DNA from: Chiloscyllium plagiosum
Lineage: Eukaryota
Direction: 5' to 3'
Assembly (NCBI RefSeq): GCF_004010195.1
Contig: NC_057719.1
Coordinates: 8,357,788 to 8,411,424, forward strand
Length of the DNA stretch: 53,637 bases
This document shows positions 1 through 53,299 of this stretch, one piece after another. The number at the start of each line of letters is the position of its first letter. The first letter of the stretch is position 1. A model generated the notes under the pieces. It made no database searches and was not told where the DNA came from. It worked only from the letters and a program-made list of their open reading frames with translations. The position numbers and the translations under genes were made by a program.

Positions 1-490
1 ACACACAACATGCATACACAGACACATAGCGTGCACACACAGACACATAACACGCACACACAGGCACATAACATGTGCACGCACACACACATACACATAA
101 CACACACACACAGACATACATAACACATGCACACACAAACGCACACACACATAACACACAGACACATGCAGACATGCGCACACACACACCCACAGAGTCA
201 AGAGTGTGGTGCTGGACAAGCAGAGCAGGTCAGGCAGCATTTGAGGAGCAGGAGAATCGACGTTTCGGTCATAAGCCTAGTCCTCGGGTGCTGCTGGACC
301 TGCTGTACCTTTCCAGCACCACACTCTCCACTCTGATCTCCAGCATCTGCTGTCCTCACTTTCTCCACATACAGAGACACACAGATACACATAACGCGCA
401 CACGCATGCACAGACACGCATACACAGACAAACACACACATACATAACACACAGACACAGACAGACATACATACATACACAGACACACAC
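1..490. repeat. Degenerate (CA)n/(CACAGA)n microsatellite, interrupted at 195-367
   Basis: Low-complexity CA-rich run; explains the His/Thr-rich and Val/Cys-rich ORFs here. Confidence 0.95.
195..367. mobile_element. Fold-back Penelope-terminus-derived element (family A), internally deleted
   Basis: AGAGTGTGGTGCTGGA... mirrored by ...TCCAGCACCACACTCT, plus tail CTCTGATCTCCAGCATCTGC..CCTCACTTTCTCC. Partial minus-strand hammerhead (ATCGACGTTTCGGTCATAAGCC). Confidence 0.85.
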
Positions 491-546
491 AATGCTGGAG
501 AAACTCAGCAGGTCTGGCATTTTCAAGTTTGATATGAGTTGTCTTG

Positions 547-925
547 AGTGGCACCGCAGCTCAGTGGTTAGCACTGCTGCCTCAAGTGCTAAGGACCTGG
601 GTTTGATTCCAGCCTTGGGTGACTGCCTGTGTGGAGGTTGTACGTTCTCTCTGTGTCTGCGTGAGTTTCCCCCAGGTGCTCCAGATTCTTCCCACATTCC
701 AAAGATGTTCAGGTTAGGTAGATTGGCCATGCTAAATTGCCCAAAGTGTCCAGGAATGTGCAGTCTAGATGGGTTAGCCGTGGGAAAGGTAGGGTTATGG
801 GAATAGTGTGTGTGTGTGTGGGGGAGGGGGGTGGGGGGATGGAGTCTAGGTGGAATGCATGTTGAAGAGTCAGTGTTGGCTTGTTGGGCCGAATGGCCTG
901 TTTCCACATTGTAGGGATGCTATGA
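547..925 (+). mobile_element. tRNA-derived V-SINE (HE1-like)
   Basis: A box-like GCAGCTCAGTGG, B box-like GGTTTGATTCC, body ending GGATTGGCCATGCTAAATTGCCC-type; about 10 related copies in the window. Confidence 0.9.
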
Positions 926-932
926 ACCCTAG

Positions 933-1035
933 AGATTCGGCAGAAGAGTCATATTGAACTCAAAATGTTAATTCTGTTTCTCTCTCCACAAATACTGCCA
1001 GATCTGCTGAGTTTCTCCAGCACTCTTTGTGTTTC
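933..1035 (+). mobile_element. Family C Penelope-like terminus remnant with decayed hammerhead; inverted partner arm at about 485-520
   Basis: GAAGAGTCATATTGAACTCAAAATGTTAA followed by CTGCCAGATCTGCTGAGTTTCTCCAGCA, whose reverse complement lies at 493-518. Same family as 41288. Confidence 0.65.
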
Positions 1036-1279
1036 CTGTGAATTGCACTCTGACAATAATCTGATAATGTCAAAGTGGTTTTGTGAGGTTGATCAAGTGT
1101 TAAATATTTGGCAGAACACTAGAGATGACACCTCAGATATTTTTAAATGGTGCATCCAAAACTTTACTATCCACTTGAGAGGGAACATGGGGTTTTGTAT
1201 TGTTGCATCATCCTTGAGATGACACCTCCAATGGAGGAGCAGCACTCTCTCATCAATCACTAGGGGATCTGCCCTTCAT

Positions 1280-1680
1280 TTTTATATTCATTTTGTGAGA
1301 TGTGGGCATCGCTGCATGGCCAGAATTTAATGCCTGTCCCTAGTTGCCCCTTGAGAAGGTAAGCTGTCTTCTTAAACCACTGCAGTCCACCTGCAGTGGG
1401 TTGACCCACAATGCCATGAATGAGGGAATTCCAGGATTTTGACCAGCGACAGTGAAGGAACGGTGATATATTTCCAAGTCAGGAAGGGAAGTTGAAAGTG
1501 GTGGTGTTTCCATGTATCTGCTGCTCTATCACTATGTATTTCCCATGGCTAATCCACCTAGCCCGTTCAACTCTGGACGCTACTGATCAAATCCAGGTCG
1601 TGTTTTGGAAGGTGCTGCCTGAAGATCTTTGACAAATTTATGCAGTGCATCCTGTAGATGGTCCACACTGCTGCTACTAG
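1280..1680 (-). mobile_element. LINE 3' fragment (clade not assigned)
   Basis: 3' tail is shared with the SINEs at 13025, 27395 and 47503 (GATGTGGGCATCGCTG..GGCCAG.ATTTA.TGCC). Confidence 0.6.
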
Positions 1681-1922
1681 ATCAAGTGCTCAAGTCTCTG
1701 TATTGTGACCATCTCCCCACACATTTCTAATTCATCGGTGAGAGTTCTTCCAACTGAGCCTAGCTTACAATAAGCCGATCATCTGCTTTTTTCAGTGATG
1801 CTCTTTGGGAGATAAATGTTACTTCGGACCCTGGGGAGCATCTTTGATATGGCTCCTGGGGATCTTCAACCTTGAACTGAATAGAAACGGTATAGTGGTG
1901 TTAAACTATATATGATCACAGC

Positions 1923-2082
1923 GTGTCTGTGTGTGTGTGTGTGGATGTGTGTGTGTCTGTGTACGTGTATGGGTGCGTGTGTGTGGGTGTCCATGTGTGT
2001 CTGTGTGTCTGTGTGCGTGCGAGTGTCTGTGCATGCAGGTGTCTGTGCGTGTCTATGTGCGTGTGTGTGAGTGTGTGTGTGT
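1923..2082. repeat. (TG)n microsatellite
   Basis: Direct inspection. Confidence 0.95.
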
Positions 2083-6454: not shown

Positions 6455-7200
6455 CTGGTGGTTCAGTGGTTAGTACTTCTGCCTCACAGTGTCAGGGACC
6501 CAGGTTTGACTCCACCCTCAGGTCACTGTCTGTGTGGGGTTTGCACGTTCTCCTTGCGTCAGCGTGGGTTTCCTCTGGATGCTCCGGTTTCCTTTCGCAG
6601 TCCAAAGATGTGCAGGTCAGGTGAACTGGCCGTGCTAAATTGCCCATAGTGTCCAGGAGTGTAAAGGCTATGTGGATTAGCCATTGGAAATGCAGGGTGA
6701 CGGACGTAAGTCAGGGGGCTTGGGTCAGGGTGGGATACTCCTTGGACAGTTGGTGTGGATTTGTTGGGCTGAATTAGAAGCAAAAAAAGCTGCAGATGCT
6801 GGAATCCAAAGTAGACAAACAGGAGAAGAAGGCAATGTTTTGGGTGTAAACCCGTCTTCAGGACTGGCTGAAGAAGAGTTATATCTGAAATGTTGACTTT
6901 GCCACCTCCTGAAGCTGCCTGGCTTGCTGGGGTGTGTTCTTTCAAGATTAGAGTGGTGCTGGAAAAGCACAGCAGGTCAGGCAGCATCGGAGGAGCAGGA
7001 AAATCAAGATTTCAGGCAAAAGCCCTTCATCAGGAATTCTTGGATGCTGCCTGACCTGCTGTGGCTTTTCCAGCACCACTCTAATCTTGACTCTGATCTC
7101 CAGCATCTGCAGTCCTCACTTTCACCTGTGTGTTCTTTCAGCCTCCTGTTTGTCTTCAATGGGCTGAATGGCCTCTTTCTGCACTGTACGGATCCTACGA
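6455..7200 (+). mobile_element. V-SINE whose 3' end is split by nested fold-back elements
   Basis: SINE body 6455-6774 resumes at 7160 after TSD TGGGCTGAAT. Confidence 0.85.
6775..7159. mobile_element. Family B fold-back element with head-to-head decayed hammerheads; hosts a family A fold-back at 6945-7127
   Basis: Outer TSD TGGGCTGAAT (6765-6774 / 7160-7169); inner TSD GTGTGTTCTTTCA (6932-6944 / 7128-7140). Confidence 0.85.
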
Positions 7201-7751: not shown

Positions 7752-8055
7752 TAGATTAGATTCCCCACAGTTTGGAAATAGGCCCTTTGGCCTAACAAGT
7801 CTATACTGGCCCTCCAAAGAGTAACCCACCCAGACCCATTGTCCTACCCTATATTTACACCAACTTGGCAATTTAGCATGCCCCATTCCCCTGATCTGCG
7901 CATCTTTTGGGTTGTGGGAGGAAACGGGAGCACACCCACACAGACACAGGGAGAATGCGCAAACTCCACACAGACAGTCACCCCAGGCTGGAATCGAACC
8001 CAATTCCCTGGCGCTGTAAGGCAACAGTGCTAACCACTGAGCCACCATGCCACCC
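7752..8055 (-). mobile_element. V-SINE (HE1-like)
   Basis: Reverse complement of the SINE at 547; head CAGTGCTAACCACTGAGCCACC. Confidence 0.9.
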
Positions 8056-9134: not shown

Positions 9135-9890
9135 GAGTGTGTGTGAGAGAGAATGTGTACATATGAGTGAGCAAGTTTGTGTTTGAGACGGTGTGTGTGT
9201 CTGTGAGAGAGCATCTATGTGTGTTTGTAAGACTGTGTGTATGTGTGCGAGAGTATATGTGTATGTGCGTGAGAGAGAGTGTATGTTTGTGTGCATGTGA
9301 GACAGTATATGATTAGATTACATACAGTGTGGAAACAGGCCCTTCGGCCCAACAAGTCCACACCGACCCTCCGAAGAGCAACCCACCAGACCCAGTCCCC
9401 TACATTTACCCCTTCACCTCACACCATGGACAATTTAGCATGGCCAATTCACCTAACGTGCACATTTTTGGACTGTGGGAGGAAACTGGAGCACCCGGAG
9501 GAAACCCACGCAGACACGGGAAGAATGTGTAAACTCCACGGAGACAGTTGCCTGAGGCGGGAATTGAACCCAGGTCTCTGGCGCTGTGAGGCAGTAGTGC
9601 GAACCACTGTGTCGCCCATGTGTATGAGTGTGTCTGTGAGAGAGTGCATATGTGTTTTGAGACTATGTATTTGTGTATATGTGTGCATGTGAGAGATTGT
9701 GTGTTTGAGAGAATGTGTGTGAAAGAGTGTATGTGTGTATGTAAGAGAGATTGTGTGTTTGAGAGATAATGTGCGTGTGTGAGAGAGTGTATGTGTGTGT
9801 GTCTGTGAGAAAGAGAGTGTGTGTGTGTGAGGGTGTATGTATATGTGAGACAGTGTGCATGAGAGTGAATGTGTGAGAGAGAATATGTAA
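9135..9890. repeat. Degenerate (TG)n/(GA)n microsatellite with a SINE inserted
   Basis: Direct inspection. Confidence 0.9.
9311..9617 (-). mobile_element. V-SINE (HE1-like)
   Basis: Reverse-complement SINE body and tRNA head. Confidence 0.9.
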
Positions 9891-13710: not shown

Positions 13711-14079
13711 CAGCTGGTGGGAGGGTAGAGGCAGGTTTATCAGGGAATGAGTTCCCAATGAGAAGGCAATGAACTTAGCAGTCTCTGTTAAAAGTTAAAA
13801 ATCACACAACACCAGGTTATAGTCCAACAGGTTTATTTGGAAGCACTAGCTTTCAGAATGCTGCTCCTTCGTCAGGTCGTTGGGGAGAATAAGATTGTCA
13901 GACACAGAATTTATAGCAAAATTTACAGTGTGATGTAACTGATATTATATTGAAAAAGATCTGGATTGTTTGCTAAGTCGCTCATCTTTTAGAATGACCA
14001 TGTTGGTTTCAGTTCTTTCATATGTAAATTGCAGAATATTTTTTTAGAAGTAACATTCTCATGTGAACTTTAACAATTG

Positions 14080-14257
14080 GTTAAAAATCACACAACACCA
14101 GGTTATAGTCCAACAGGTTTAATTGGAAGCACACTAGCTTTCGGAGCGACGCTCCTTCATCAGGTGATATCACCTGATAAAGGAGCGTCGCTCCGAAAGC
14201 TAGTATGCTTCCAATTAAACCTGTTGGACTATAACCTGGTGTTGTGTGATTTTTAAC
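14080..14257. repeat. 178-bp loopless palindrome (89-bp arms, 2 mismatches); second copy at 14557-14733
   Basis: Centre GGTGAT|ATCACC at 14168/14169; arms pair GTTAAAAATCACACAACACCAGG with CCTGGTGTTGTGTGATTTTTAAC. Confidence 0.95.
14132..14166 (-). ncRNA. Minimal type-I hammerhead ribozyme motif (intact core)
   Basis: Minus strand CAC-CTGATGA-A-GGAGC-GTC-GCTCC-GAAA-GCTA-GTG: stem I CAC/GTG, 5-bp stem II, palindromic AGCU, CUA cleavage triplet. Confidence 0.8.
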
Positions 14258-15557
14258 TTTGTCCACCCCAGTCCAACACCGGCATCTCCGAATCAAGTCC
14301 AACAGGTTTATTTGGAAGCACCAGCTTTCAGAGCGCTGCTCCTTCGTCAGGTCGTTGGGGAGAATAAGATTGTCAGACACAGAATTTATAGCAAAAATTT
14401 ACAGTGTGATGTAACTGAAATTATATATTGAAAAAGACCTGGATTGTTTGCTAAGTCGCTCATCTTTTAGAATGACCATGTTGGTTTCAGTTCTTTCATA
14501 TGTAAATTGCAGAATTTTTTTTAGAAGTTACATTCTCATGTGAACTTTAACAATTGGTTAAAAATCTCACAATACCAGGTTATAGTCCAACAGGTTTAAT
14601 TGGAAGCACACTAGCTTTTGGAGCGCCGCTCCTTCATCAGGTGATATCAGGTGATGAAGGAGCGTCGCTCCGAAAGCTAGTGTGCTTCCAATTAAACCTG
14701 TTGGATATAACCTGGTGTTGTGTGATTTTTAACTTTGTACACCCCAGTCCAACACCCGCATCTCCGAATCAATTTTAACAATTGGTGTCATGTCGTCCCA
14801 GATAATGCATTGAAGGTGTGAGTTTCCCTGTGTGAGACTGTCTGTGCCACAATGGTCAGACTGATTCTCATCTAACAAACGGATTTACAGAATCTTACAT
14901 GGACTCATGCAGTTTTTGAGCAAAATAAAATGTAATTCTGCAAAATCAAATTCACCGCACAAACCTATATGTGTGTGTGTGTGTATGTGTGTGTGGCAGG
15001 GGGTAGGGTAAGGTTATGAGGGTCTGTGAAAGAGTGTGTGTATCCGCATGTAAAGATGTATACAGCTGTGAGAGGGTGTGTGCGAAAGTGTATGTGTGAG
15101 CGTATGAGAGAGAGTCTGGGTGTGTGTGTGTGTTTATGTGTATCTGTAGGAGAGTGTGTGTGTGTGTAGGAGTGTCTGTGTGTGTCTGTCTATCTGTGTG
15201 TATGTAGTGCAATGGGGTCACCTGTAGTCTGACCTGGTTCAGGCCATCCTCATGGGTACTGTTGAAAGTAACATTGTTCCAAGCAAATGACCTTTGCACT
15301 CTGGCTGTAATTGGTCAAGCATGACCCAGACAAAGAAAAAATAGTCTGCAGCATCACTGTATTGTATTCAAAAACAAAACCCACAAAGAGATTGGATTGA
15401 TGTGGCAATTTCTGATATGTAATATAGAATTTCTTTGTAGCTTTTATTGATTAACTTTACACTCTAAAGAGGGAGGAGTATGTTAGTGCTCAGAATGCAG
15501 TGGGTTTTGACCCGAAGTCAGAAAGTTCTGTGTTCAAGTCCTACCTGAAGATTTGAG

Positions 15558-17261: not shown

Positions 17262-17555
17262 CTAGAATCCCTACAGTGTGGAAACAGGCCCTTCAGCCCA
17301 ACAAGTCCACAGCGACCCTCTGCACAGTAACCCAGACCTCTGTCTAATGCACCTAGCCTACACATCCCTGGACGCTATGGGCAATTTTGCATGGCCAATT
17401 CACCTAACCTGTACAGCTTTGCGATTGTGGGAGGAAACCCATGCAAACACAGGGAGAATGTGCAAACCCCACACAGACAGTCACCCGAGGCTGGAATTGA
17501 ACCCAGGTCCCTGATGCTATGAGTCAGCAATGCTAATCACTGAGCCACCATGCCA
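17262..17555 (-). mobile_element. V-SINE (HE1-like)
   Basis: Reverse-complement SINE. Confidence 0.88.
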
Positions 17556-18024
17556 CTCGTTAGCGCAGTGGTGCTGGTAAAGGTTGTCTGGCTGCTTACT
17601 TACAAAACTGATTGCACTACTTGAATGGTTGCAAATCATTTTGAGATGTGGGTGTGAAAGGCGTTATGTAAATGCAAGTCTTTGCTTCTTGTCCTCCCTT
17701 TTGGTGGAACACGGTGTTTTGGACAACCCTGAGAGAAGGTTTCTCCAGTGGTGAAGACCCAGGAGGGAGCAGCCACATGAGTATGGGGTCATTCCAAAAC
17801 GTGTAAAGCCAGAGTGGAGGCATTCAATGGTCCAGGCACTCGGTATGTTCAGATGGGTTTAGATTACCAGTAAAAGCTGAAGGGTCACATGATGAGAAAG
17901 GGCAAGTCAGAGAGATTGCCAGGCACCAGAACTGTCCCATTCTGGCAATAAGCCACCAATTGTATATGCAAGGGTTGAGGCACCTACCAACCCAATCTAC
18001 CCAAGTCACACAACCAACATGGTC

Positions 18025-19541: not shown

Positions 19542-19875
19542 GGGGTGGCTCAGTGTTTAACACTGCTGCCTTACAGCATCAGGGACTCAGGTTCAATTCC
19601 AGCTTTGGTTCACTGTGTGGAGTTAACACATTCTCCCAGTGTCTGTGTGGGTTTCCTCTGGGTGCTCCGATTTGCCCCTCAAAGTCCAAAGGTGTGCAGG
19701 TGAGGGTGTTTTGGCCTTGGAAAATTGCACATAATGGCCAGGGATGTGCAGGTTAAGTAGATTGGCCACAGGGAAATGCAGAGTTACAGGGTGGGGGGAG
19801 GTGAGTCTGGGCAGGGTGCTCTTCGGAGGGGTGGTGTGGACTTGTTGGGCTGAATTCCACACTGTAGGGATCCAT
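19542..19875 (+). mobile_element. V-SINE (HE1-like)
   Basis: GGTGGCTCAGTG head and SINE body. Confidence 0.88.
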
Positions 19876-20120
19876 GGATGTGCGCATGATTATATTTTGG
19901 TCTCTGACCCACAGCTTTCAGCTTCTGAGAGAAGGGCACTCCTCATTGCTCCACTGTTCCTGGCTATATTTGCATTCGACAATTAACTGAGTGAAATTAT
20001 CCAAAATATTCTGATTTTATGTTAGCGTTTCACCTTTCACCCACTGTGGTGAGCTGGATTCTGTTAATATTTGCATCGAAGTTAGTGTCATTCGACTGCA
20101 GCCCGGGGAACGAGGATGAA

Positions 20121-20344
20121 GAGTCGAGAGCATAGTGCTAGAAAAGCACAGCAGGTCAGGCAGCATCCGAGGAGCAGGAGAATCCACGTTTCGGGTAAAA
20201 GCCGTTCATCAGGAAGGGCTGATGAAGGGCTTATGCCTGAAACGTCAATTCTGCTGCTCCTCAGATGCTGCCTGACCGGCTGTGCTTTTCCAGCACCACA
20301 CTCTCGACTCTGATCTCCAGCATCTGCAGTTCTCACTTTCTCCA
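20121..20344. mobile_element. Family A fold-back element with head-to-head hammerhead motifs
   Basis: + core CTGATGA-A-GGGC-TTAT-GCCT-GAAA-CGTC at 20219-20246; decayed - core at 20184-20214; about 90-bp inverted arms plus tail. Confidence 0.88.
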
Positions 20345-20539: not shown

Positions 20540-20990
20540 CCTTTCCCTGCCCCTCCCCGCTCCCTTCTACTCCTCCCAGCCACCAACTGGATTCCTTCCT
20601 CCCATTGGCCAACCAGGTTGTACCCTCTACCTGTCTTCACCTATCCCCACTTCACCATCCTGCCCCTGCCACCCCCTTTATCTGCAGCTCCCCCCACCGC
20701 CCACCCCAGTCCTGAAGAAATGTTACACCTGAACCGTTGACTTCTCTACCTCCTGATGCTGCCTGACTTGCTGTGTTCCTCCAGACTCCTGCCTGTCCCT
20801 CCTGATGCTGCCTGGCTTGCTGTGTTCCTCCAGCCTCCTGCCTCTCCCTCTGATGCTGCCTGCCTTGCTGTGTATCCCCAGCCTCCTGCCTGTCCCTTCT
20901 GATGCTGCCTGACTTGCTGTGTTCCTCCAGCCTCCTCCCTGTCCCTCCTGATGCTGCCTGGTTTGCTGTGTTCCTCCAGCCTCCTGCTTG
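20540..20990 (+). repeat. Family B Penelope 3' terminus ending in about 5 copies of a 48-49 bp tandem repeat (20752-20990)
   Basis: C-rich UTR, decayed hammerhead GTC-CTGAAGA..GAACCGTTGAC at 20709; unit CCTGATGCTGCCTGGCTTGCTGTGTTCCTCCAGCCTCCTGCCTGTCCCT. Confidence 0.85.
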
Positions 20991-20992
20991 TA

Positions 20993-22562: not shown

Positions 22563-22572
22563 TGAATGCATT

Positions 22573-23473
22573 AGAGCTGAAAAATGTGTTGCTGGAAAAA
22601 CGCAGCAGGTCAGGCAGCATCCAAGGAGCAGGAGAATCGATGTTTCGGGCATGAGCCCTTCTTCAGGAGTGAGGAGGGTGTGCCAAGCAGGATAAGATAA
22701 AAGGTAGGGAGGAGGGACTTAGGGGAGGGGCGTTGGGAATGCGATAGGTGGAAGGAGGTTAAGGTGAGGGTGATAGGCCGGAGAGGGGGTGGGGGCGGAG
22801 AGGTCGGGAAGAAGATTGCAGGTCAAGAAGGCGGTGCTGAGTCCGAGGGTTGGCACTGAGATAAGTTGGGGGGAGGGGAAATGAGGAAGCTGGAGAAATC
22901 TGCATTCATCCCTTGTGGTTGGAGGGTTCTTAGGCGGAAGATGAGGCACTCTTCCTCCAGGCGTCATGTTGCCATGGTCTGGCGATGGAGGAGGCCAAGG
23001 ACCTGCATGTCCTTGGCGGAGTGGGAGAGAGAGTTAAAGTGTTCAGCCACAGTGCGGTTGGGTTGGTTGGTGCAGGTGTCCCAGAGGTGTTCTCTGAAAT
23101 GTTCCACAAGTAGGCGGCCTGTCTCCCCAATGAAGAGGAGGCCATATCGGGTGCAGCGGATGCAGTAAATGATATGTGTGGAGGTGCAGGTGAATTTGTG
23201 ACAGATATGGAAGGATCCCTTGGGGCCTTGGAGGGAAGTGAGGGGGGAGGTGTGGGCGCAAGTTTTGCATTTCTTGCGGTTGCAGGGGAAGGTGCCGGGA
23301 GTGGAGGTTGGGTTGGTGGGGGATGTGGACCTGATGAGGGAGTCACGGAGGGAGTGGTCTTATCGGAACGCTGATCGGGGAGGGAAATATATCCCTGGTG
23401 GTGGGGTCTGTTTGGAGGTGGCGGAAATGACGAAGGATGATACGATGTATCTGGAGGTTGGTGGGGTGGTAGG
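22573..23473 (-). mobile_element. Neptune-type Penelope-like element, 3' part (Cys linker, GIY-YIG endonuclease, terminus with hammerhead)
   Basis: Minus strand PGTFPCNRKKCKTCAH, IIYCIRCTRYGLLFIGETGR, VAEHFNS..HSAKDMQVLGL; hammerhead CTGAAGA-A-GGGCTCATGCCC-GAAA-CATC at about 22638-22669. Confidence 0.9.
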
Positions 23474-24593
23474 TGCTGCCTGACACGCTGTGCTTTTCCA
23501 GCACCACACTCGCGACTCTGATCTCCAGCATCTGCAGTTCTCACTTTCTCCAACGAGACTGGAGAAGCAGGGGCAGCAGAATGAAGGTTGTGTGTGGGTT
23601 GTGCTGGTAGTCCACTGGCAGGCAGGTTGTGATAGAGCTTGGCTTTTCATGGGAACAGAGTGATGAATTATGTGGAGCCCTTCGATTCTTCAGCACGTGG
23701 CTGGAGAGCTGTGTGCACTACCTCTTCTGACCAAGGTCTATCAAATCCCTTTCCCAGCCCCTCCCTTCCACTCCTCCCAGCCACCAGCTGGATTCCTCCC
23801 TCCCATTTACCAACCAGGTTGTACCATTTACCTGTCTTCACCTATCCCCACTTCACCATCCTGCCCCTGCCACCCCCTTTATCTGCAGCTCCCCCCACCG
23901 CCCACCCCAGTCCTGAAGAAATGTTACACCTGAACCGTTGACTTCTCTACCTCCTGATGCTGCCTGACTTGCTGTGTTCCTCCAGACTCCTGCCTGTCCC
24001 TCCTGATGCTGCCTGGCTTGCTGTGTTCCTCCAGACTCCTGCCTGTCCCTCCTNNNNNNNNNNNNNNNNNNNNNNNNNNNNNNNNNNNNNNNNNNNNNNN
24101 NNNNNNNNNNNNNNNNNNNNNNNNNNNNCTGCCTGTCCCTCCTGATGCTGCCTGGCTTGCTGTGTTCCTCCAGCCTCCTGCCTGTCCCTCCTGCTGCTGC
24201 CTGGCTTGCTCTGTTCTTCCAGCCTCCTGCCTCTCCCTCCTGATGCTGCCTGGCTTGCTCTGTTCTTCCAGCCTCCTGCCTGTCCCTCCTGATGTTACCT
24301 GGCTTGTTGTGTTCCCCCAGCCTTCTGCCTGTCCCTCCTGATGCTGCCTGGCTTGCTGTGTTCCTCCAGCCTCCTGCCTCTCCCTCTGATGCTGCCTGCC
24401 TTGCTGTGTATCCCCAGCCTCCTGCCTGTCCCTTCTGATGCTGCCTGGCTTACTGTGTTCCCCTAGCCTCCTGCCTGCTCCTCCTGACACTGCCTGCCTT
24501 GCTGTGTTCCTCCAGCCTCCTGCCTCTCCCTCTGATGCTGCCTGCCTTGCTGTGTATCCCCAGCCTCCTGCCTGTCCCTTCTGATGCTGCCTG
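23474..24593 (+). repeat. Duplicate of 20266 to at least 20850, with the 48-49 bp minisatellite expanded (about 13 units, including the gap)
   Basis: Near-identical unique spacer AACGAGACTGGAGA..CCAAGGTCTATCAAATCCC at about 20345 and 23552. Confidence 0.9.
24054..24128. other. Assembly gap
   Basis: Run of N inside the minisatellite. Confidence 1.
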
Positions 24594-24986
24594 CTGGGAC
24601 ACCCGCACCAACCAACCCAACCGCCCTGTGGCTGTACACTTTAACTCCCCCTCCCACTCCACCAAGGACATGCAGGTCCTTGGCCTCCTCCATCGCCAGA
24701 CCATGGCAACACGACGCCTGGAGGAAGAGCACCTCATCTTCAGCCTAGGAGCCCTCTAATCACAAGGGATGAATGCAGATTTCTCCCACTTCCTCATTTC
24801 CCCTCCCCCCCACCTTGTCTCAGTGCCAACCCTCGGACTTAGCACCGCCTTCTTGACCTGCAATCTTCTTCCCGATCTCTCCCCCTCCACCCCCTCTCCG
24901 GCCTATCACCCTCACCTTAACCTCCTTCCACCTATCGCATTCCCAACGCCCATCCCCCAAGTCCCTCCTCCCTCCCTTTTATCTTA
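24594..24986 (+). mobile_element. Family A Penelope fragment, inverted copy of 22693-23084
   Basis: WDTRTNQPNRPVAVHFNSPSHSTKDMQVLGLLHRQTMATRRLEEEHLIF followed by the C-rich UTR. Confidence 0.9.
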
Positions 24987-25471
24987 GCCAGGCCAGCATT
25001 CATTACTCACCTTAATTGGCTAGAAGGTCATTCATTTTACTGTAGGTCTGGGATCACATGGAAGCCAGATCAGGTAGGGAGAGCAGATTTCCTTCACTCA
25101 CGGGGCAGTACTGAACTAGATGGCTTTCTATGGCAACTGACAGTGGTCACAAGATTGCTACTAGACTCACTCTTTATTCCAAATGTTTTTCATTGAATTC
25201 TGATTGCATCATATTCAATGGCAGAATTCAACCACATTGACCTGGCCTTCTGGATTATTACTCCAGAGACATTACCACTACACCACCACCTCCTGTTAAA
25301 TATATATTGCAAATGCAAGTCCTATGGTTTTTGGTTATGATACTGAATTATAAGTAATAAGATCCTGCTTGTAGTCCACCCAATGTGTACTGGAGTTACA
25401 TGCTGACCCTTATTTAGGGTCTTTGGAAGGATAACATCTTGACCAGATTAGTTTTTATTTTGTCTTCAATA

Positions 25472-25935: not shown

Positions 25936-26085
25936 AGAGTCGTGAGTGTGGTGCTGGAAAAACATAGCAGGTCAGGCAGCATCTGAGGAGCAGGAAAATG
26001 GACGTTCCTCGGATGCTGCCTGACCTGCTGTGTTTTTCCAGCACCACACTCTCGACTCTAGCATCTGCAACCCTCACTTTCGCCT
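25936..26085. mobile_element. Family A fold-back element with the hammerhead core deleted
   Basis: GAGTGTGGTGCTGGAAAAACATAGCAGGTCAGGCAGCATC mirrored by GATGCTGCCTGACCTGCTGTGTTTTTCCAGCACCACACTC. Confidence 0.85.
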
Positions 26086-27059
26086 GTGCAACTGAGAGTC
26101 CAGGACGACAGATCTGGTTATGCAATTCCAACCACAACATGGGAATTTAAAAGTAATGACATATATTTTGGACTAAACCGCTTGCAATGGTTAGATTATT
26201 CTTAAAACCTTAGTCTTTCTAGCCCGATCTGACCTCCATGTGACTCCGAACCTGCAGCAATGGCCTCTATGTTGTAGTTTAACACCATTGTCTCAAGGCG
26301 TTTTCCCTAGGGATATAACTTCTTGTGAAACCCACATTCTGTGAATGAATTGACAGAAAAGGCAGCTGGTGAAACTCAGTTGAATGATGTCCGCTGTCCA
26401 TGGGCTGCCAATGGATACAAATGTTCATTTGCTCCATCCCTGCATTCGCACACTGTCTCCAGCAGCGTTTGCAAGATAGCAATTTGGCAAACGACGCCCC
26501 TTGAAAACCACTCTCAGAAAGACATGAAGGCATAGAGACAGTTAATTAAAATTTCACGGGAACGGTTCCTGGGATGAGGAATTCCACATTTGTAGTCAAT
26601 AAGAAAAGTTTTACCTGGGGAATGTTGGCAGGAAACTCAATGGAGATTTTCAAAATTACAATGGCTCTCAACAGAGTAGAGGGTAAAAGGTGTTCCTCTT
26701 GGTGGAAGAATCAAGAACAAGCATGTGCACATTATAGGTAACTGGTAATAGGAGGAAGTGAAGACAGGAGGAGAAGCCTTTTTATGCAGCGGTTAATTAA
26801 GGCCTGGAATGTGTTGAGAGTATGACGGGGGCAGGTTCAATCAAAGCAGTTAGGAGGAGATTAGAGTATTCTCTTGATAGAAACATTGTTTATTTTCTTT
26901 GCATGGGACAGTGGGCATTGCTGTTTAGGCTGGCATTTATTGAACACCCCCATAGCCCTTAAGAAGGTATTGGAGAACTATCTTCTGAAAGTGTTACAAT
27001 CCATGAGCAGGGTACGTTTATAGGTTCAGTGCTTCTGCAAAGTCAGACATCTACAGTCA

Positions 27060-28080
27060 GAATCGTAGAGTCATAGAGATGTACTGCACGGAAATAGACC
27101 CTTTGGTCCAACTCGTCCATGCCAACCAGATATCCCAACCTAATCTAGTCCCATTTGCCAGCACTTGGCCCATATTCCTCTGAGCCTTTCCTAATTCATA
27201 TATGTTCTGATTTGGAGATGCCGTTGTAAAAATTTGATGTCTGTGTCGATATGTGCGATCTTCTTGGAGATCCTCTCCACTTCAAGCCGAAAGCTAGTGC
27301 TTCCAATTAAACCTGTTGGTCTATAACCTGGTGTTGTGTGATTTTTAACTTTTAAGTGTTGTAAGTGTAAGAGCCTCCACCACTTCCACTGGCAGGGGAG
27401 ACAATGGCCTAGTGGTGTTGTTGCTGGACTCTTAACTCAGCGACCCAGGTATTGTTCTGGGAACCTGGGTTCAAATCCTGCTGTGATAGATGGTGGAAGT
27501 TAAATTCAATAGATATCTGGAATCAAGAGTCTATGATAACCAGGAATCTATTGCTGATTGTTGGAAAAATTCATATGGTTCAATAATATCCTTTAGGGGA
27601 AGGAAACTGCCATCCTTACCTGGTCTGGCCTACATATGACTCTAGGCCCACAGCAATGTGGTTGACTCCTAACTGCTCTCTGGGTAATAAATGCTGAGTG
27701 ATGTCCTCATTTTGTGAATGAGTAAAAACAAAGCTCATTCCATACATGCACCACCCACTGTGTGAAAAAAATGCACTTCAGGACCCTTTTATATCTTTCC
27801 CCTCTCACCCTAAACCTATGCCCTCTATTTCTGGACTTGCCCACCCCAGGGAAAAGATCTTGTCGATTTACCCTATCCATGCCCCTCAAAATTTTATAAA
27901 CCTCTACAAGCTCATCCCTCAGCCTCAGACACTCCAGGGAAAACAGCCCCAGTCTATTTAACGTCTTCCTATAGCTCAAATCCTCCAACCCTGGCAACAT
28001 CCTTGTAAATCTTTTCTGGACTCTTTCAAGTTTAACAACATCTTTCCCGTAGCAAGGTGACCAGAATTGAACACAGTGGA
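27060..28080 (-). mobile_element. CR1 3' fragment with a nested family D piece (27207-27351) and a SINE (27395-27730, +)
   Basis: ORF 27707-28000 LNRLGLFSLECLRLRDELVEVYKILRG..FFTQWVVHVWNEL. Confidence 0.85.
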
Positions 28081-29893: not shown

Positions 29894-31110
29894 TGTACTC
29901 CTTGCGATGAAAAGTGTGTGATCTGTATATTACATAAGAAAGTTATTTTAGAGTTTGGATTTTGAACTAGTGGCATGGGGGTTTTGTTCTATGTATATGA
30001 AAGGGTTTAATGATTAACTTGCTAGCATTTCTGGAGCTATGACTTTTTAAAATCAGTACGAAAGTGGGAGTCCATGGATGTTAATGGTAATTTATTTGAA
30101 TTGGGAGAGTTTGATGAATGGGCAGTGTAAACACTGAAGAGCATTAGCTGGCTTTCAGTTAGAAGAATCAGGAAGTTCTTTTTGCTGAAGGGAAAATTCC
30201 ATAGCTTAGAAAGTTTCGTTTTTAATTGACAGGTGGCCTGGTTGATGTTAGATGTATGAAACAGTTTCTCCGAGAGAAAAGAATGAATTTGAAAAAGTTA
30301 CGAAATAAGTTACTTCCATATAAGTGCTTCAGTTGCAAGCACTGTACCAGAAGTATTTAGGTAAGACCATGAAGGTGATTATTTGGATCTGAGGAAGTCT
30401 AAGCTCAGTTGTATGAATAATCGAGGAAGAGGCTATCAAGCCCTCAACAGCTAAAATTGAAAGGAACCATTAAGTTAAACCTATAGTGCAGGATGGCTTA
30501 GTGGTGAGCACTGCTACCTCACAGCGCCTGGGATTCCAGCCTTGAGTGACTGTCTGTATGAAGTTTGCACATTCCCCCTGTACTTGTGTGGGTTAGGTGC
30601 TCCGGTTTCCTCCCACAGTCCAAAGGTGTGCAGGTTATGTGGATTGATCATGCTAAATTTCACATATGTCCAGGGATGTGCAGGCTAGATGAATTTGCCA
30701 TGGGAATATGCAGGGTTACAAGGATAGGATAGGGGCATGGGTCTGGGTGGGATGCTCTTTGGTGGGTCAGTGTGGATATGATGGGTCGAATGGCTGGCTT
30801 CCACACTGTAGGGATTCTATACATGTGACAGAAATTCAAACTCTCTTTGCTGTTTGTGTATTGTGAAGTGATGGTGTTGGGATAGATGTGACTGTGTATT
30901 CACTCTGTGTTTTGAAATGTGTTTTATATCAATCACATGTTTTATTCTGTTTTAACTCCATTGTTTTCACATAATAAAACCCAAATCAAATCTCCGTAAT
31001 TCTGTGGTTTTATTTCAGTGAAAGATGACCTTGTTAAATAAAATCAATCAAGACAGGTTTCAGACTGGGATCTGACTTGTCCTGCAGTAACATTAGTTGT
31101 GGTTATCATA
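29894..31110 (+). mobile_element. Possible old solo LTR with a V-SINE nested at about 30490-30820
   Basis: The SINE is clear; the LTR call rests only on a TG start, AATAAA at about 30973 and a ..ATCATA end. Confidence 0.4.
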
Positions 31111-34100: not shown

Positions 34101-35118
34101 TGGTGGGTACCACAGAGACATGGCTGCAAGGGGATCAGGATTGGGAGCTGAATATTCAAGGATATCCATCCTTTTGAAATAATGGGCAAAAAAGGGGTGG
34201 GTTTGCCTATGAGTAAGAAATGAAATTAAATCAATAGTAAGAAACAAAGTAGGGTCAGATGATGTAGAATCTGTGTGGGTAGAATTGAGGAACTGCAAGG
34301 GTAAAAACAAAATACAGTTGCAGTTATGCACAGGCCTCCAAATAGTAATCAGGAGCTGGGCCGCAACATACACCAGGAGATACAAACGCAGTGTAGGAAA
34401 GGCAAAGTTACAGAGATCATGGGGGATTTCAATATGCAGGTGGACTGGGAAAATCAGGTTGGCAGTGGATTGCGAGGAAAGGAATTTGTGGGATATCTAT
34501 GAGATGGCTTTTTGGAGCAGCTTGTGGTGGAGCCCATTAAGGAACAGGCAATACTGGATTTAATGTTGTGCAATGAGACAGACTTGATAAGGGAGCTGAA
34601 GGTGAAGAAACCCTTAGGAGGCAGTAATTATAATAAAACAGAAACAACGGTAATGGTATTTCAGCTGAGTACGGGCATGAGGGAGGAGCTGGGTAGGATT
34701 GACTGGGAGAGAGGAGCCTAGCAGGTAAAACAGTGGAACAGCAATGATGGTAGTTTCTGGGAGTAATTCAGGAGACTCAGCAGACATTCATCCCTAGGGA
34801 AAAGAAGCATGTACAGGGAGGATGAGGTAACCATGGCTGACTAGGGAAGTCAGGGATAGCATAAAAACAAAAGAGAAAGCAGATAATGTGGCGAAGGGCA
34901 GTGGGAAAGCAGGGGATTGGGAAGCTTACAAAGATCAACAGAGTCTAGATTAGAGTGGTGCTGGAAAAGCACAGCAGTTCAGGCAGCATCCTTTATACCT
35001 AAAGATCAACAGAGGGCAACAAAAAGAGAAATAAGGAGGGAGAATATTAAATATGTGAGTAAGCTAGCCAGTAATATAAAGGAAGACTGTCAGAGTTCTT
35101 TAGATATAGAAAGGACAA

Positions 35119-38428: not shown

Positions 38429-39036
38429 ATGATCCCTGGAATGACAGGTCTAACATATGAGGAACGGCTGAGGATACTGGGATTGTATTCGTTGGAGTTT
38501 AGAAGATTAAGGGGAGACTTAATAGAGACGTACAAAATAATACATGGCTTGGAAAAGGTGGATGCTAGGAAATTGTTTCAGTTAGACGAGGAGACTAGGA
38601 CCCGTGGACACAGCCGTAGAATTAGAGGGGGTCTTCCTGAAGAAGGGCCTGTGCCCGAAACGTCGAATCTCCTGTTCCCTGGATGCTGCCTGACCTGCTG
38701 TGCTGTTCCAGCAATAAAGTTTCAACTTTGATCTCCAGCATCTGCAGACCTCACTTTCTCCTCATTTCAGAACAGAAATGCGGAGACATTTCTTCAGCCA
38801 GAGAGTGGTGGGCCTGTGGAATTCATTGCCACGGAGTGCAGTGGAAGCCGGGACGCTAAATGTCTTCAAGGCCGAGATTGATAGATTCTTGTTGTCTAGA
38901 GGAATTAAGGGCTACGGGGAGAACGCTGGTAAGTGGAGCTGAAATGCGCATCAGCCATGATTGAATGGCGGAGTAGACTCGATGGGCCGAATGGCCTTAC
39001 TTCCACTCCTATGTCTTATGGTCTTATGGTCTTATG
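38429..39036 (+). mobile_element. 5'-truncated CR1 nested in the host CR1 RT
   Basis: MIPGMTGLTYEERLRILGLYSLEFRRLRGDLIETYK; ends (GTCTTATG)3; host resumes with DWK. Confidence 0.9.
38634..38667 (+). ncRNA. Minimal type-I hammerhead ribozyme motif (intact core) at the 5' end of a 130-bp family A insert (38634-38763)
   Basis: TTC-CTGAAGA-A-GGGC-CTGT-GCCC-GAAA-CGTC-GAA: stem I TTC/GAA, palindromic ACGU, GUC triplet. Confidence 0.8.
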
Positions 39037-40742: not shown

Positions 40743-40866
40743 GGTAAAAACGAGGACTGCAGATGCTGGAAACCCGAGTCTAGATTAGAGCAATGCTGGA
40801 AAAGTACAGCAGGTCAGGCAGCATCCGAGGAGCAGGAAAATCGACGTTTCGGGCAAAAGCCCTTCA
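40743..40866 (-). mobile_element. Family A terminus, truncated inside the hammerhead core, with a 14-bp flanking direct repeat
   Basis: TCGGGTCAGTGCTG at 40729-40742 and 40867-40880. Confidence 0.88.
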
Positions 40867-42079: not shown

Positions 42080-42990
42080 GAGTCTAGAGCCATACAGCAC
42101 AGAAACAGACCCTTTCGTTGAACTCTTCCATGGCAACCAGATATCCTAAATTAATTTAGCCCCATTTGCCAGCACTTGGCCCATATCCCTCTAAAGCCTG
42201 CCTATTCATACAACCATCCAGATACATTTTAAATGTTGTAATTGCACCGACCTCCACCACTTCCTCTGGCAGCTCATTCTATACACGCACTAATGTCTGC
42301 ATTAGTTTGGACTCCCCTACCCAGGGTAATAGATCTTGACTATCCGTGCCCCTCATTATTTTATAAACTTCTATAAGATCGCTACTCAGCCTCCTATTCT
42401 CCAGGGAAAACAGACTCAGCCTATTTAGCCTCTGCTATCGCTCCAACCATCCCACCCTGGCAACCTGTAAAATGTCTTTGAATTCTTTCAAGTTTCGTGG
42501 TGGCTCAGTGATTAGCACTGCTGCTTCACAGCACCAGGGACCTGGGTTTGATTCCAGCCTCGGGTTACTGTCTGTGTGGAGTTTGCACATTCTCCCCGTG
42601 TCTGCGTGGGTTTCCTTTGGGTGCTCTGATTTCCTCCCACAGTCACTAAGATGTGTAGGTCAGGTGAATTGGCCATGGGAAATTGCCCGTAGTGTTAGGT
42701 GCATTAGTTGGAGGGAAATGGGTCTGGATGGGTTATTCTTCGGAGGGTTAGTGTGGACTTTTTGGGCCAAAGAGCGTGTTTCCACACTGTAGGAAAACTA
42801 ATCCTTCCAAAGCAAGGAGACCAGCATTGCACGCAATATTCTAGAAGGGGCCTCACCAATGTTCTATAGAGCCACAACATGACCTCCCACTTCCTACACT
42901 CAGTGCACTGACCAATGAAGGCAAGCGTACCAAACACCTTTTTCACTGCCCTGTTTACCTGCGACTCTGCTTTCAAGGAGTTATGAATCT
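42080..42990 (-). mobile_element. CR1 3' fragment with a nested V-SINE (42495-42795, +)
   Basis: ORF 42704-42976 VKKVFGTLAFI..LYRTLVRPLLEYCVQCWSP. Confidence 0.88.
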
Positions 42991-43679: not shown

Positions 43680-43970
43680 TGGGTGACATGGTGGCTCAGT
43701 GGTTAGCACTGTTGCCTCACAGACCCAGGGACCTAAGTTTGATTCCAGCTTCAGGCCACCCACTGTGTGGAGTTTGTGCGTTCTCCCTGTGACTGCTTGG
43801 GTATTCTCCGGCTGCTCCGGTTTCCTCTCACAGTCACAAAGATGTGCAGGCCATGCTAAATTGTTTTAGGTGTATTAGTCAGAGGGAAATGGGTCTGGGT
43901 GGATTCTTCTTTGGAGGGTCAGTGTGGACTTGTCGGGCTGAAGGGCCTGTTTGCACACTGTAGGGAATCT
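43680..43970 (+). mobile_element. V-SINE (HE1-like), followed by a second-family SINE remnant to about 44240
   Basis: GGTGGCTCAGTGGTTAGCACTG head. Confidence 0.88.
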
Positions 43971-44375
43971 AATTAATGTAACTGGGCTAGTCATCCAAAC
44001 CCCAGGCTGTTGGGCTGGAGCACGGGTTTCATATTCAAATTTGAATTCAATAAAGTTTGGAATAAGGAGCTGGCTCAGTAGAGGCCATGTAGCTATTGTA
44101 AAAACTCATCTGCTTCACTAATGCAGTTTCGATAAAAAACTCTGCTTGCCTACACGTAACGCCAGACCCATAGCGTTGTGGTTCACTCTTAATTACCATC
44201 TAAGCATAAATGCCAGCCTCGCCAACACAGCACACATCGTACTTATGTGATAGGCCATTCAGCCGTTAAGCCTGCAAATGTCTCAGTCTCACTCAGTAAA
44301 AATAAAAATATATGAAAATGGTCATTATCTTTTGAGTTCATCCTGAACTAAGCTCCTCTGTGCTGCGTCCCTTTG

Positions 44376-45310: not shown

Positions 45311-45314
45311 AAGA

Positions 45315-46010: not shown

Positions 46011-46329
46011 TATGTTGTATTTAGGTCACTGTTCCAAATTGGCTTTCTGACCCTTTTAAAACAGTCTTTGTAGAAAATGTCTCTATTTTGAAATCCAAAT
46101 ATAAAAATATAACATTTATCATAGACCTTCAGCGAATAGTGAGTATGGTGTGATGGAATTCTCTGTTAAGTTTGAAACTATTGTAGTTCAATCTGAAACA
46201 AGGGTCTTAAATCTAAACAAGGACAATGACAGAGTTATGAGGAGGATATTGCCTGTGGTGGATTGAAAAGAATATGTCAAAAGACTTGATGCCCAGTAGG
46301 TTACAGCTTTCAAATCTGACAATTATTTT

Positions 46330-48960: not shown

Positions 48961-48969
48961 CAGTTTCCA

Positions 48970-49240
48970 GGGCAGCATGGCGGCTCAGGGTTAGCACCGC
49001 TGTCTCACAGTGCCAGGGACCTGGGTTCGATTCCAGCCTCAGGCAACTGTCTGTATAGAGTTTGCAAGTTTTCTCTGGATGCTCCGGTTTCTTTCCATAG
49101 TCCAAAGATACCCATTGTATTTGGGTAGGTTCAGGCTAGGTAGATTAGCCATGGGAAATGCAGGGTTACAGGGTTTAGATGGGAATGCTCTTTGGAGGGT
49201 TGGTTTGGACTGAATAGCCTGCTTCCACACTATAGGGATT
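48970..49240 (+). mobile_element. V-SINE (HE1-like)
   Basis: GGCGGCTCAGGGTTAGC..GGTTCGATTCC head. Confidence 0.85.
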
Positions 49241-49944
49241 CGATGATTTGAAACAGAAAATGGGTTATTGAGTGAGAAATAATCAGCACTCTACCTATCT
49301 GCTTTTTCCAGACTGACTGCTGGTCACCCATTCCCTTTTGGCTGCCTGATCCTAATATAAAGTGTGACCACTTTGTGAAATGTTCTTTCAAAGTAGATGT
49401 TACCTTCATGAACATACCTCAGTGACTCCACGTAGCACTCAAGTTCCAAAACTCTCAGTTAAAGATTTTTCAGTTAGAGCCACTTGCTCTATATGTGATT
49501 ATTGAAGCATCCAAGACTTCTCACAGGGTGGGAATTCTATGCAGCTGAGCTATCCTGCCATTCCCGAAGGCTAAATTTAGGCTATTTACCTTAAGCTGGA
49601 AATAGAAGATCAGAGAATAAAATTACTCATCAATCAACTCCAATGAATCTAGTTTTGTCTTTGACTGCCTGCCTTGGGGTTTAATTTTCATTTATTCCTT
49701 TAGGTGATGCTGATCACCCATCGTAGGCTTCTCACCTCGCCATCACAATGCTGACTGCCTGCCTTGGGTTATTGTCTTAGCTGCTCTTCTGGGTGCTTTT
49801 GGCGGCCTGTTGCAGGGTTCTCATCTTGCCTGCAGCTCAGATGTACAGATTGGCTATCGTCAAATCAAATTGCATAATAGACCGGAGGCACTGAATGGCC
49901 TCTTGATCCTCTGTTTCACGTTTGCATTTAAAGACAAGGAAGTA

Positions 49945-50452: not shown

Positions 50453-51303
50453 GTGACAGAGGTGCAAAGAACAATCAGTTAAATGGATAGACAGAGTAAC
50501 CATACATTTAATTTATGCTTGAATGTATATAAAAATTAACTTCTGACCATCAAAGTTTTCATCTTTCGTATACTTGTTCGAATCTGTTTCACAATTTCTT
50601 TTTTCCCACTCGAGTATCAGAAACACTGGGAGACATCCTGGTCCAAGGCGTGCCCTGCACATTTCAGGACCATGGTCAGCGACCAGCGTTACGAGTTTAT
50701 CCACGGTCCGGCACTTCCAAGGATCCTGACAGGATCTCAACGCCTTGAAAGTCTTGCTCATCAAGTTTCAATCCCCTTTCCAAAGTCTTCCCTACAATTT
50801 GGTTTGAAAAAACAATCAGACTTTTACATCAGGAATTGGAATGGGCCTGTTAATTTGAAATGAAACAGAGGAGGGGTGTGAATTTCTTGGACGATACAGA
50901 GCGATGATGATAATGTGAGTCAAAGGCTGCAGAAAGACAGCAGCAAGATCGAAATGAGGTGAACTTCCATCCGCAGGAACATCCACAATTGGATATAGAA
51001 ACATACACAATCCTTGATGTCACAAGGAATTAAGGGCTACGGGGAGAATGCGGGTAAGTGGAGTTGAAATGCCCATCAGCCATGATTGAATGGTGGAGTG
51101 GACTCGATGGGCCGAATGGCCTTACTTCCGCTCCTATGTCTTATGGTCTTATGAACTGGTCCTCACCCTGAACAACTTCTCTTTCCAATCCTCCCACTTC
51201 CTCCAAACGAAAGGAGTAGCCATGGGCACCCGCATGGGCCCCAGCTATGCCTGCCCCTTCGTAGGATATGTGGAACAATCCATCTTCCGCAACGACACTG
51301 GCC

Positions 51304-52178
51304 NNNNNNNNNNNNNNNNNNNNNNNNNNNNNNNNNNNNNNNNNNNNNNNNNNNNNNNNNNNNNNNNNNNNNNNNNNNNNNNNNNNNNNNNNNNNNNNNN
51401 NNNNNNNNNNNNNNNNNNNNNNNNNNNNNNNNNNNNNNNNNNNNNNNNNNNNNNNNNNNNNNNNNNNNNNNNNNNNNNNNNNNNNNNNNNNNNNNNNNNN
51501 NNNNNNNNNNNNNNNNNNNNNNNNNNNNNNNNNNNNNNNNNNNNNNNNNNNNNNNNNNNNNNNNNNNNNNNNNNNNNNNNNNNNNNNNNNNNNNNNNNNN
51601 NNNNNNNNNNNNNNNNNNNNNNNNNNNNNNNNNNNNNNNNNNNNNNNNNNNNNNNNNNNNNNNNNNNNNNNNNNNNNNNNNNNNNNNNNNNNNNNNNNNN
51701 NNNNNNNNNNNNNNNNNNNNNNNNNNNNNNNNNNNNNNNNNNNNNNNNNNNNNNNNNNNNNNNNNNNNNNNNNNNNNNNNNNNNNNNNNNNNNNNNNNNN
51801 NNNNNNNNNNNNNNNNNNNNNNNNNNNNNNNNNNNNNNNNNNNNNNNNNNNNNNNNNNNNNNNNNNNNNNNNNNNNNNNNNNNNNNNNNNNNNNNNNNNN
51901 NNNNNNNNNNNNNNNNNNNNNNNNNNNNNNNNNNNNNNNNNNNNNNNNNNNNNNNNNNNNNNNNNNNNNNNNNNNNNNNNNNNNNNNNNNNNNNNNNNNN
52001 NNNNNNNNNNNNNNNNNNNNNNNNNNNNNNNNNNNNNNNNNNNNNNNNNNNNNNNNNNNNNNNNNNNNNNNNNNNNNNNNNNNNNNNNNNNNNNNNNNNN
52101 NNNNNNNNNNNNNNNNNNNNNNNNNNNNNNNNNNNNNNNNNNNNNNNNNNNNNNNNNNNNNNNNNNNNNNNNNNNNNN
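51304..52178. other. Assembly gap
   Basis: Run of N inside the Penelope copy. Confidence 1.
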
Positions 52179-52412
52179 TGGGGTGGGGGCGGAGAGGTTG
52201 GGAAGAAGATTGCAGGTTAGGAAGGCGGTGCTGAATTTGAATTCAGCACCGCCTTCCTAACCTGCAATCTTCTTCCCGACCTCTCCTCCCCCACCCCAGT
52301 CTGACCTATCACCCTCACCTTGACCTCTTTCCACCTATCACATTTCCGACGCCCCTCCCCCAAGTCCCTCCTCCCTATCTTTTATCTTAGCCTGCTGGAC
52401 CAACTTTCCTCA

Positions 52413-52446
52413 TTCCTGAAGAAGGGCTAATGCCCGAAACGTCGAT
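52413..52446 (+). ncRNA. Minimal type-I hammerhead ribozyme motif (intact core)
   Basis: TC-CTGAAGA-A-GGGC-TAAT-GCCC-GAAA-CGTC-GA. Confidence 0.78.
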
Positions 52447-52933
52447 TCTCCTGTTCCCTAGATGCTGCCTGACCTGCTGCGCTTTTCCAGCAACACATTT
52501 CCATCTCTGATCTCCAGCATCTGCAGACCTCACTTTCTCCTTATGGTCTTATGGTCTTATGATGGGACTGGACAGGCTTGTTGAGTGTTCCCGATGTAGG
52601 GAAGTCCAGAACTTGCAGTCACAGTCTAAGAATAAGGGGATAAACCATTGAGGAGTGAGCTGAGGAAGAATTTCTTCACTCCACAAGTCGTGAACCTGTG
52701 GAATTCTCTCCCACAGAAAGCTGTTGGGGCGAGTTTGTTAGATATGTTTAAAAGGGAATTGGACGTGGCCCTTGTGGCTAAAGATCAGTTAGGAAGAATG
52801 GACAATAATTGCTGGCCCAGCCATCCACATACTATGTATGAATAAACAAAAATGTCTCTCTATTCAGGGGTAGGCTATCTTCCATGATGTTCTGGTCAAT
52901 ATTCATCCCACACTAAGCAACCAAAACTGCAGA

Positions 52934-53164
52934 GACCAAAAAAATCTGCAGATGCTGGAATTCAAAGTAAACAAACAGGAAGCTTGAAGAACACAGTAAG
53001 CCCAGGGTCATCAGGAGGTGGAGGTGGTTTCAGGTATAACCCTTCTCCAGGACTCAGAGAGCTTGAGTCCTGAAGAAGGGTTAATATCCAAAACATTGAC
53101 TTCTCCACCTCCTGCTGCTGCCTGGCTTGCTGTGTTCTTCCAGCCTCCTGCTTGTCTATCACTA
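52934..53164. mobile_element. Family B fold-back element, decayed hammerheads
   Basis: TSD AAAACTGCAGA (52923-52933 / 53165-53175); centre CAGGACTCA..TGAGTCCTG. Confidence 0.82.
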
Positions 53165-53299
53165 AAAACTGCAGACTGCTCATTATCAATTGTTGTTTGA
53201 GCGAAAGCTGGAATGGGATACTAAGTTGGATGATCAGCCATGATCATATCGAATGGTGGTGCAGGTTTGAATGGCTAATGGCCTACTCTGCACCTATTT

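Follow-up and report, generated by a model that had tools for sequence, protein, structure and literature searches.

The stretch analysed here, called the window throughout, comprises 53,637 nucleotides of the Chiloscyllium plagiosum genome (NCBI RefSeq assembly GCF_004010195.1, contig NC_057719.1, forward-strand positions 8,357,788 to 8,411,424), and the subject of this study is a set of short fold-back elements in it that are made of the termini of Penelope-like elements (PLEs). An earlier note on this DNA had listed eight such elements, starting at 195, 6775, 6945, 14080, 14557, 20121, 25936 and 52934 and sorted into three families (A, B and D). Paired inverted Penelope-terminus arms were present at all eight starts, and in each of these, as in a longer fold-back at 52179, a 5'-truncated copy faces an inverted one head to head. 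The listed elements measure 151-231 bp, and 6775 spans 385 bp solely because 6945 is nested inside it. The one-sided unpaired tail was likewise found in every element, although its length is 27-40 nt and not the 35-40 nt first reported: the unpaired 3' part is 33-40 nt long in seven of the eight and only 27 nt in 25936, owing to an internal deletion. All eight elements are real, but 14080 and 14557 are not independent of each other; they share one tandem duplication, and the eight elements therefore represent seven insertions.

Positions within the arms are given on a scale where +1 is the first base of the hammerhead core. The family A fold-back listed as 195 (194..367, plus strand) lies within a CA microsatellite; its tail-less arm runs in to +10, its tailed arm starts at +40, and about three filler bases separate them. 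In 6945 (6945..7127, plus), a family A fold-back nested in a D arm, the tail-less arm reaches -3 and the tailed arm about +40 to +46. The arms of 20121 (20120..20344, plus) reach -2 and +1 and are separated by 3 bases, while those of 25936 (25936..26086, plus) reach +23 and +38 to +40, overlapping by 1 base. The long family A fold-back at 52179..52541 (plus) has its pivot at about 52238, roughly 175 nt upstream of the core, and its left arm enters a gap of N. Family D is represented by 6775..7159 (minus), which sits in the 3' end of a short interspersed nuclear element (SINE) and whose tailed arm is the left one and carries an internal deletion, and by 52934..53164 (minus), with 7 bases between two arms that are 76% alike. 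In the first copy of the family B fold-back (14080..14295, plus) the pivot is symmetric and lies 5 nt upstream of the cores; the host of the fold-back is a family B Penelope end with upstream body (13791..14970, minus, the right limit being approximate). The second copy (14557-14773) is held in a tandem duplicate of 13821-14295 that occupies 14296..14772 (plus).

Comparison of the arm ends revealed a clear division between outer and inner ends. In family A the outer ends were near-constant, at about +93/94 in tail-less arms and +125/126 in tailed arms, the tail-less arm of 6945 stopping about 5-10 nt short of this. The inner ends varied from element to element as described above, and the two family D junctions also differed from each other. 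The earlier note had read the elements as a replicating family and had itself made the recurrence of identical junctions the test of that reading; in all seven independent insertions the junction was unique. The sole shared junction, that of 14080 and 14557, falls within the local tandem duplication (13821-14295 / 14296-14772), a 477-bp repeat identical in 457 of 479 columns (250 of 260 in the host part), which copied 260 bp of host sequence along with the fold-back. The joints themselves show 0-1 shared base or 3-7 extra bases. Exactly one arm is tailed in each of the seven insertions, and in 195, 6945, 20121 and 25936 the segments that mark the subfamily type agree between the two arms. In these same four elements the tail-less arm is the longer one on the upstream side, the difference from the tailed arm being 30, about 45, 3 and about 16 nt, respectively.

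The fold-backs also form part of a continuum of sizes, from single arms through fold-backs and longer fold-backs to an arm of about 900 bp with GIY-YIG coding sequence. The single arms include a tail-less A arm that begins at +46 (34941..34991, minus) and a tailed A arm that begins at -2 within a long interspersed nuclear element (LINE)-type, CR1-like remnant (38634..38762, plus), both without a target-site duplication (TSD), a tailed A arm that begins a few bases from the core start (40743..40866, minus), and a further single arm at 27287. As a separate observation, many arms of all three families stop no more than about 6 nt upstream of the core (52412-52416, 14160-14172, 6862-6868 and 53055-53068), and family A has a second cluster of stops at +38 to +46. 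Hammerhead cleavage was considered as the source of the inner ends and is not supported: the predicted cut lies after +28 and the arms start at -3 to +1 or at +38 to +46. No arm begins at +29, and ribozyme cutting therefore does not explain the arm stops.

Five direct repeats of 10-14 bp had been quoted as flanking these elements, and all five were exact at their coordinates: 6765/7160 (10 bp) around 6775, 6932/7128 (13 bp) around 6945, 14546/14774 (13 bp) in family B, 52923/53165 (11 bp) around 52934 and 40729/40867 (14 bp) around the single arm 40743..40866. Exact repeats of this length occurred at 5 of the 14 element boundaries scanned, as against exact repeats of at least 10 bp at 0.2% of 3000 random boundary pairs. 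Two of the motifs have 'empty' paralogues in the window, since the 6765/7160 motif or a variant of it is single in each of seven other SINE copies and the 6932/7128 motif is single in intact D arms. A single TSD pair brackets both arms in four of the seven insertions. In family B the TSD copies lie at 14067-14079, 14546 and 14774, so that 14080 and 14557 have one right-hand copy in common; the 52923 TSD is less independent than it appears, because it resembles the tail end of its own element. No TSD of at least 10 bp was found at 195, 20121 or 25936, where the best exact repeats were 6 bp, 6 bp and none. Insertion as units with TSDs, as the earlier note had proposed, is thus borne out, with Penelope reverse transcriptase (RT) and GIY-YIG endonuclease as the most likely agent. 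Two of the five TSD-flanked insertions lie within PLE sequence (A in the D arm, 6932-7140; B in the B body, 14067-14786), which may point to a preference for related sequence.

Miniature inverted-repeat transposable elements (MITEs) are recognised by symmetric terminal inverted repeats and by the fixed-length TSD of their DDE transposase partner (cf. PMC8969392). The fold-backs have asymmetric ends because of the one-sided tail, and their TSDs are of 10, 11, 13, 13 or 14 bp or absent. Many dispersed copies with a common junction were not seen, either among the seven insertions of the window or, for families A and D, among the best-supported joints in genome contigs.

In family A the arms connect to Penelope coding sequence. 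The long tail-less A arm at 22572..23470 (minus) extends over about 900 bp and includes a coding remnant (22964-23359, minus) with 84% and 69% identity to Chiloscyllium proteins, Rhincodon and Leucoraja being among its best relatives, and with 47% identity to P0005, a protein of 894 amino acids with RT and GIY-YIG domains; its own Pfam match is weak (E 0.067). A second remnant, of Penelope RT, at 51141..51302 (plus), shows 58% identity to P0005. Family D arms are 71-80% like family A, and it is this similarity that links D to PLEs. Family B is assigned to PLEs provisionally, on its hammerhead, its tail and the common architecture. That the elements are Penelope termini, with an inverted arm, a tail on one side and minimal hammerheads, was thus upheld, and with the coding link of family A, the inverted truncated copy and the short, optional TSD the elements show the features of canonical endonuclease-containing (EN+) PLEs.

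These features correspond closely to what is published. A typical PLE unit is described as an inverted 5'-truncated copy with a one-sided tail of 30-40 bp (PMC8557442), and a rotifer is reported to have inverted pseudo-long terminal repeats (pLTRs) whose junctions are palindromic and whose TSDs are 9-10 bp long (PMC3846280). The shark elements share with these units the head-to-head copy, the tail at one end, TSDs of about 10 bp, palindromic or variable junctions, a hammerhead in the repeat and heavy 5' truncation. They differ in that the published drawings are longer, whereas the shark arms are only 50-130 bp and extremely abundant; the accessible text of both papers holds no junction census. 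Metazoan PLE minimal hammerheads are reported to have a stem II and almost no stem III, and in Schistosoma opposite-strand hammerhead pairs about 100-700 bp apart, among mostly single motifs, were ascribed to truncated PLEs (PMC4209133, whose main text does not contain the word 'shark'). The shark cores, known from their sequence, lie closer together, at about 5-20 bp. Both the inverted copy with its tail and the opposite-strand hammerheads are therefore already published.

Several elements had been said to carry hammerhead cores head to head, one per strand. Cores on both strands were recognisable in five of the eight (6775, 14080, 14557, 20121 and 52934) but not in the other three, 6945 having one core, on the minus strand, and 195 and 25936 none. 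The core boxes and stem II are present in A, B and D arms. In the five double-core elements the cores are mostly decayed; none has two flawless cores, and at least one core is damaged in each; in 14080 the minus-strand core is intact and the plus-strand core mutated, and in 6775 both are decayed. Predicted stem II probability was 0.00 in the whole of 20121 and 14080 as against 0.92-1.00 in their single arms, and stem II was retained in the prediction for the one-core element 6945. The cores of 20121 and 14080 are thus predicted to be locked within the hairpin, paired to their own antisense. A search of Rfam returned no hammerhead family, and several elements had only sub-threshold matches of microRNA type.

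Every element has at most one core per strand, and two cores on the same strand were found nowhere. This bears on the comparison with non-LTR retrozymes (LTR, long terminal repeat), which are also small, non-coding, pLTR-related and hammerhead-bearing, but which are described as direct tandem repeats with same-strand ribozymes and circular RNA and as needing two ribozymes (PMC7229834; bioRxiv 10.64898/2026.07.22.740005); the shark elements are inverted pairs. Since no strand has two cores, they lack the feature that defines a retrozyme, a direct tandem arrangement with two or more hammerheads on one strand, and, judged by folding prediction, they also lack a foldable ribozyme that could release RNA.

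Three contig runs and one RNA run were aligned to 52243-53370, a region that represents families A and D, by one A arm and the D element 52934. Joints were taken from the 15 best-supported of 813 and from 12 of the 341 rows of the table of joints 5c. The family A arm is clearly very abundant in the genome: its summed contig depth was about 1.5e7 in run X1, where the count is incomplete, against 29 for single-copy sequence, a figure that is not a copy number. A 19-base arm motif gave 48 matches in metagenome contigs, none extending beyond 26 bases, and these were dropped as chance; in viral contigs it had no match.

Three strand-change joints stood among the best 15 of 813, and none of the three was supported by the 3957 aligned RNA reads. 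Joint 52413-52507 reached a depth of 163 in X5, about 10 times its single-copy depth of 17, and joint 52984-53134 was present in one contig. No family A pivot joint with a strand change exceeded about 10 times single-copy depth among these 15, nor did they include any abundant pivot shared by copies of family A or D, bearing in mind that near-perfect hairpins are poorly retained in contigs and that old sister copies would have diverged. Joints 52446-52413/52412 had depths of 135-137 in two samples, 5-8 times single-copy, their orientation not being given in table 5c. As a separate observation, joint 52500-52541, which links outer (3') ends and not the central pivot, was present in 40, 5 and 27 contigs of the three runs and suggests tail-to-tail arrangements elsewhere in the genome.

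For the D element 52934, contigs covering the flank, TSD, left arm and pivot had single-copy depth in two samples, and the bin with the pivot had 3% of the depth of the next bin. Its left edge is present in a second species, so that this insertion is probably older than that species split; no empty-site joint was among the best 15 of 813. The RNA run was a polyA single-cell library, and 94% of its aligned reads ran on into unlike sequence. The reads showed no clustered molecule starts or ends, in a library type unable to show RNA ends, circles or small RNAs, and they are therefore taken neither for nor against cleavage. A search of sequencing runs gave no RNA run among its listed holders, an outcome that does not bear on expression. 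RNA-read depth fell about 4-fold from the core bin to the bin upstream, and 205 reads had heterogeneous loose ends just before 52412. These observations would be expected if many copies began immediately 5' of the core, though differences between subfamilies could contribute.

Taken together, we consider it likely that the fold-backs are PLE 3' ends joined head to head and made anew at each insertion, by priming from two ends and joining of the resulting complementary DNAs (cDNAs). In such an event the GIY-YIG domain would nick both strands 10-14 bp apart, giving rise to the TSD. One cut DNA end would prime at the end of the tail (+125/126) and the other some 33 nt further 5', at an internal start (+93/94); this would account for both the one-sided tail and the fixed outer ends. 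Each cDNA would stop early and independently of the other, in many cases immediately 5' of the hammerhead or around +40 to +46, and end-joining would link the two with a 0-1 base overlap or a few filler bases, occasionally with copied nearby DNA. Insertions formed in this way are predicted to be dead on arrival, and the hammerheads would be passengers, one per strand and paired to their own antisense when both are present. A precedent for the priming step comes from PAc, a Poseidon element of the lizard Anolis carolinensis, for which cutting and extension of both strands, two RT start sites that bound the tail and a hammerhead dispensable for insertion in vitro are described (PMC11167929). The two start sites and both-strand extension match the two fixed outer ends of the shark elements; the host and family are different, and the accessible text of that paper shows no joining of two cDNAs into a fold-back.

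An alternative in which the insertions are also one-off events, but a single cDNA or RNA snaps back and primes itself (self-priming) to form the second arm, which the endonuclease then trims, appears unlikely to us. Palindromic junctions have been interpreted as self-priming in PMC3846280, the B pivot is perfectly symmetric, the arms of 52934 reach equally far, and in 6775 the tailed arm reaches further than the other; these three cases do not discriminate, and self-priming may account for them. It is the asymmetric elements that speak against it. In 195, 6945 and 25936, and marginally in 20121, the upstream extension is confined to the tail-less arm and the tail to the tailed arm, so that neither can have been copied from the other by snap-back.

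The proposal of the earlier note, that three families have produced non-autonomous hairpins of MITE or retrozyme type which are transcribed and re-inserted as units in trans by Penelope proteins, was not supported, and we regard a replicating hairpin family as very unlikely. The unit-like TSDs and the great abundance of the arms would suit it, as would the report that pLTRs suffice for mobilisation in trans (PMC3846280), the breakpoint of the B duplicate at the tail end, and the few near-core joints that recur in two samples. What stands against it is that the junctions of all seven independent insertions differ, the shared one being a tandem duplicate with 260 bp of flank; that no strand has two cores and the cores are predicted to be masked by the hairpin; and that the best-supported joints include no abundant pivot, the three strand-change joints among them having no RNA-read support. 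A literature search, with Repbase, Dfam, most subscription papers and supplements outside it, found neither a replicating Penelope hairpin family nor these shark elements. An origin after insertion, from a second PLE inserting in opposite orientation alongside the first or from recombination between nearby inverted copies, is extremely unlikely, for although PLEs in the window do land in one another (6945 in a D arm, 14080 in the B body) and an outer-end joint between opposite strands is found in contigs of all three runs, one TSD pair surrounds both arms in four of the seven insertions, the arms match in subfamily type and exactly one of them is tailed in every case.

Several points weigh against the reading of the fold-backs as products of two-ended priming. 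The priming step itself is carried over by analogy from the lizard element. Three of the seven fold-backs have no clear TSD, and the census consists of seven insertions in the window and the best-supported joints. The clustering of the junctions and the perfect symmetry of the B pivot would fit the self-priming model of PMC3846280 as well. Lastly, the breakpoint of the B tandem duplication (14295/14296) falls exactly at the B tail end, the presumed RT start, which hints that the duplication may have been made by RT; this is the one sign of re-copying of a fold-back, but the duplicate carries flank and landed in tandem. It is very unlikely that some fold-backs, most plausibly the symmetric ones of family B, are re-copied from the tail by Penelope RT. 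If true, these would make up a non-autonomous PLE family of hairpin shape, the first of its kind, in which the antisense arm of each element silences its opposite-strand ribozymes.

The surrounding sequence offers further observations on Penelope insertion. Segment 23474-24593 repeats the sequence from 20263 to about 20900 (a tailed A arm, unique flank and a D end), with 564 of 590 columns identical as far as an N gap. On one side of it lies the long A arm in inverted orientation (22572-23470) and on the other the sense arm that pairs with it (24594-24989), these arms being alike in 369 of 396 columns. The segment looks like nearby DNA captured at a Penelope inversion joint, with an assembly artefact as the alternative. 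A minisatellite at 20744-20991 and 23945-24593 consists of 49-bp units from the core-less part of a D arm; its joint, at which the sequence goes back by 49 bases, is covered by 6 RNA reads and by contigs from two samples, and RT that jumped template repeatedly may have produced it. The RT remnant, an 875-base N gap and the long fold-back (51141-52541) are bracketed by copies of a short tandem repeat, one with which a LINE-type remnant ends. About ten copies of a repeat of about 300 bp lie at 546-923, 6456-6774, 7754-8055, 9311-9609, 17263-17556, 19543-19871, 30491-30834, 42498-42803, 43681-43978 and 48975-49259. We take this repeat to be SINE-like and many other fragments to be CR1/L2-like, presumably ordinary for a genome of this type.

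The fold-backs are a real feature of this genome and most likely one-off truncated insertions, a shark instance of an already described PLE insertion architecture, and not a self-copying ribozyme mini-element; as such they are ordinary PLE architecture in miniature. They matter mainly for genome annotation, in which hairpins of this kind can pass for MITEs or for precursors of microRNAs. For the biology of PLEs, the fold-backs constitute a large natural record of second-end joining, a step that the PLE literature, as far as its accessible text goes, calls unresolved. In such a record the identity of the longer arm, the position of the stops relative to the hammerhead and the filler at the joint can discriminate two-ended priming from self-priming.

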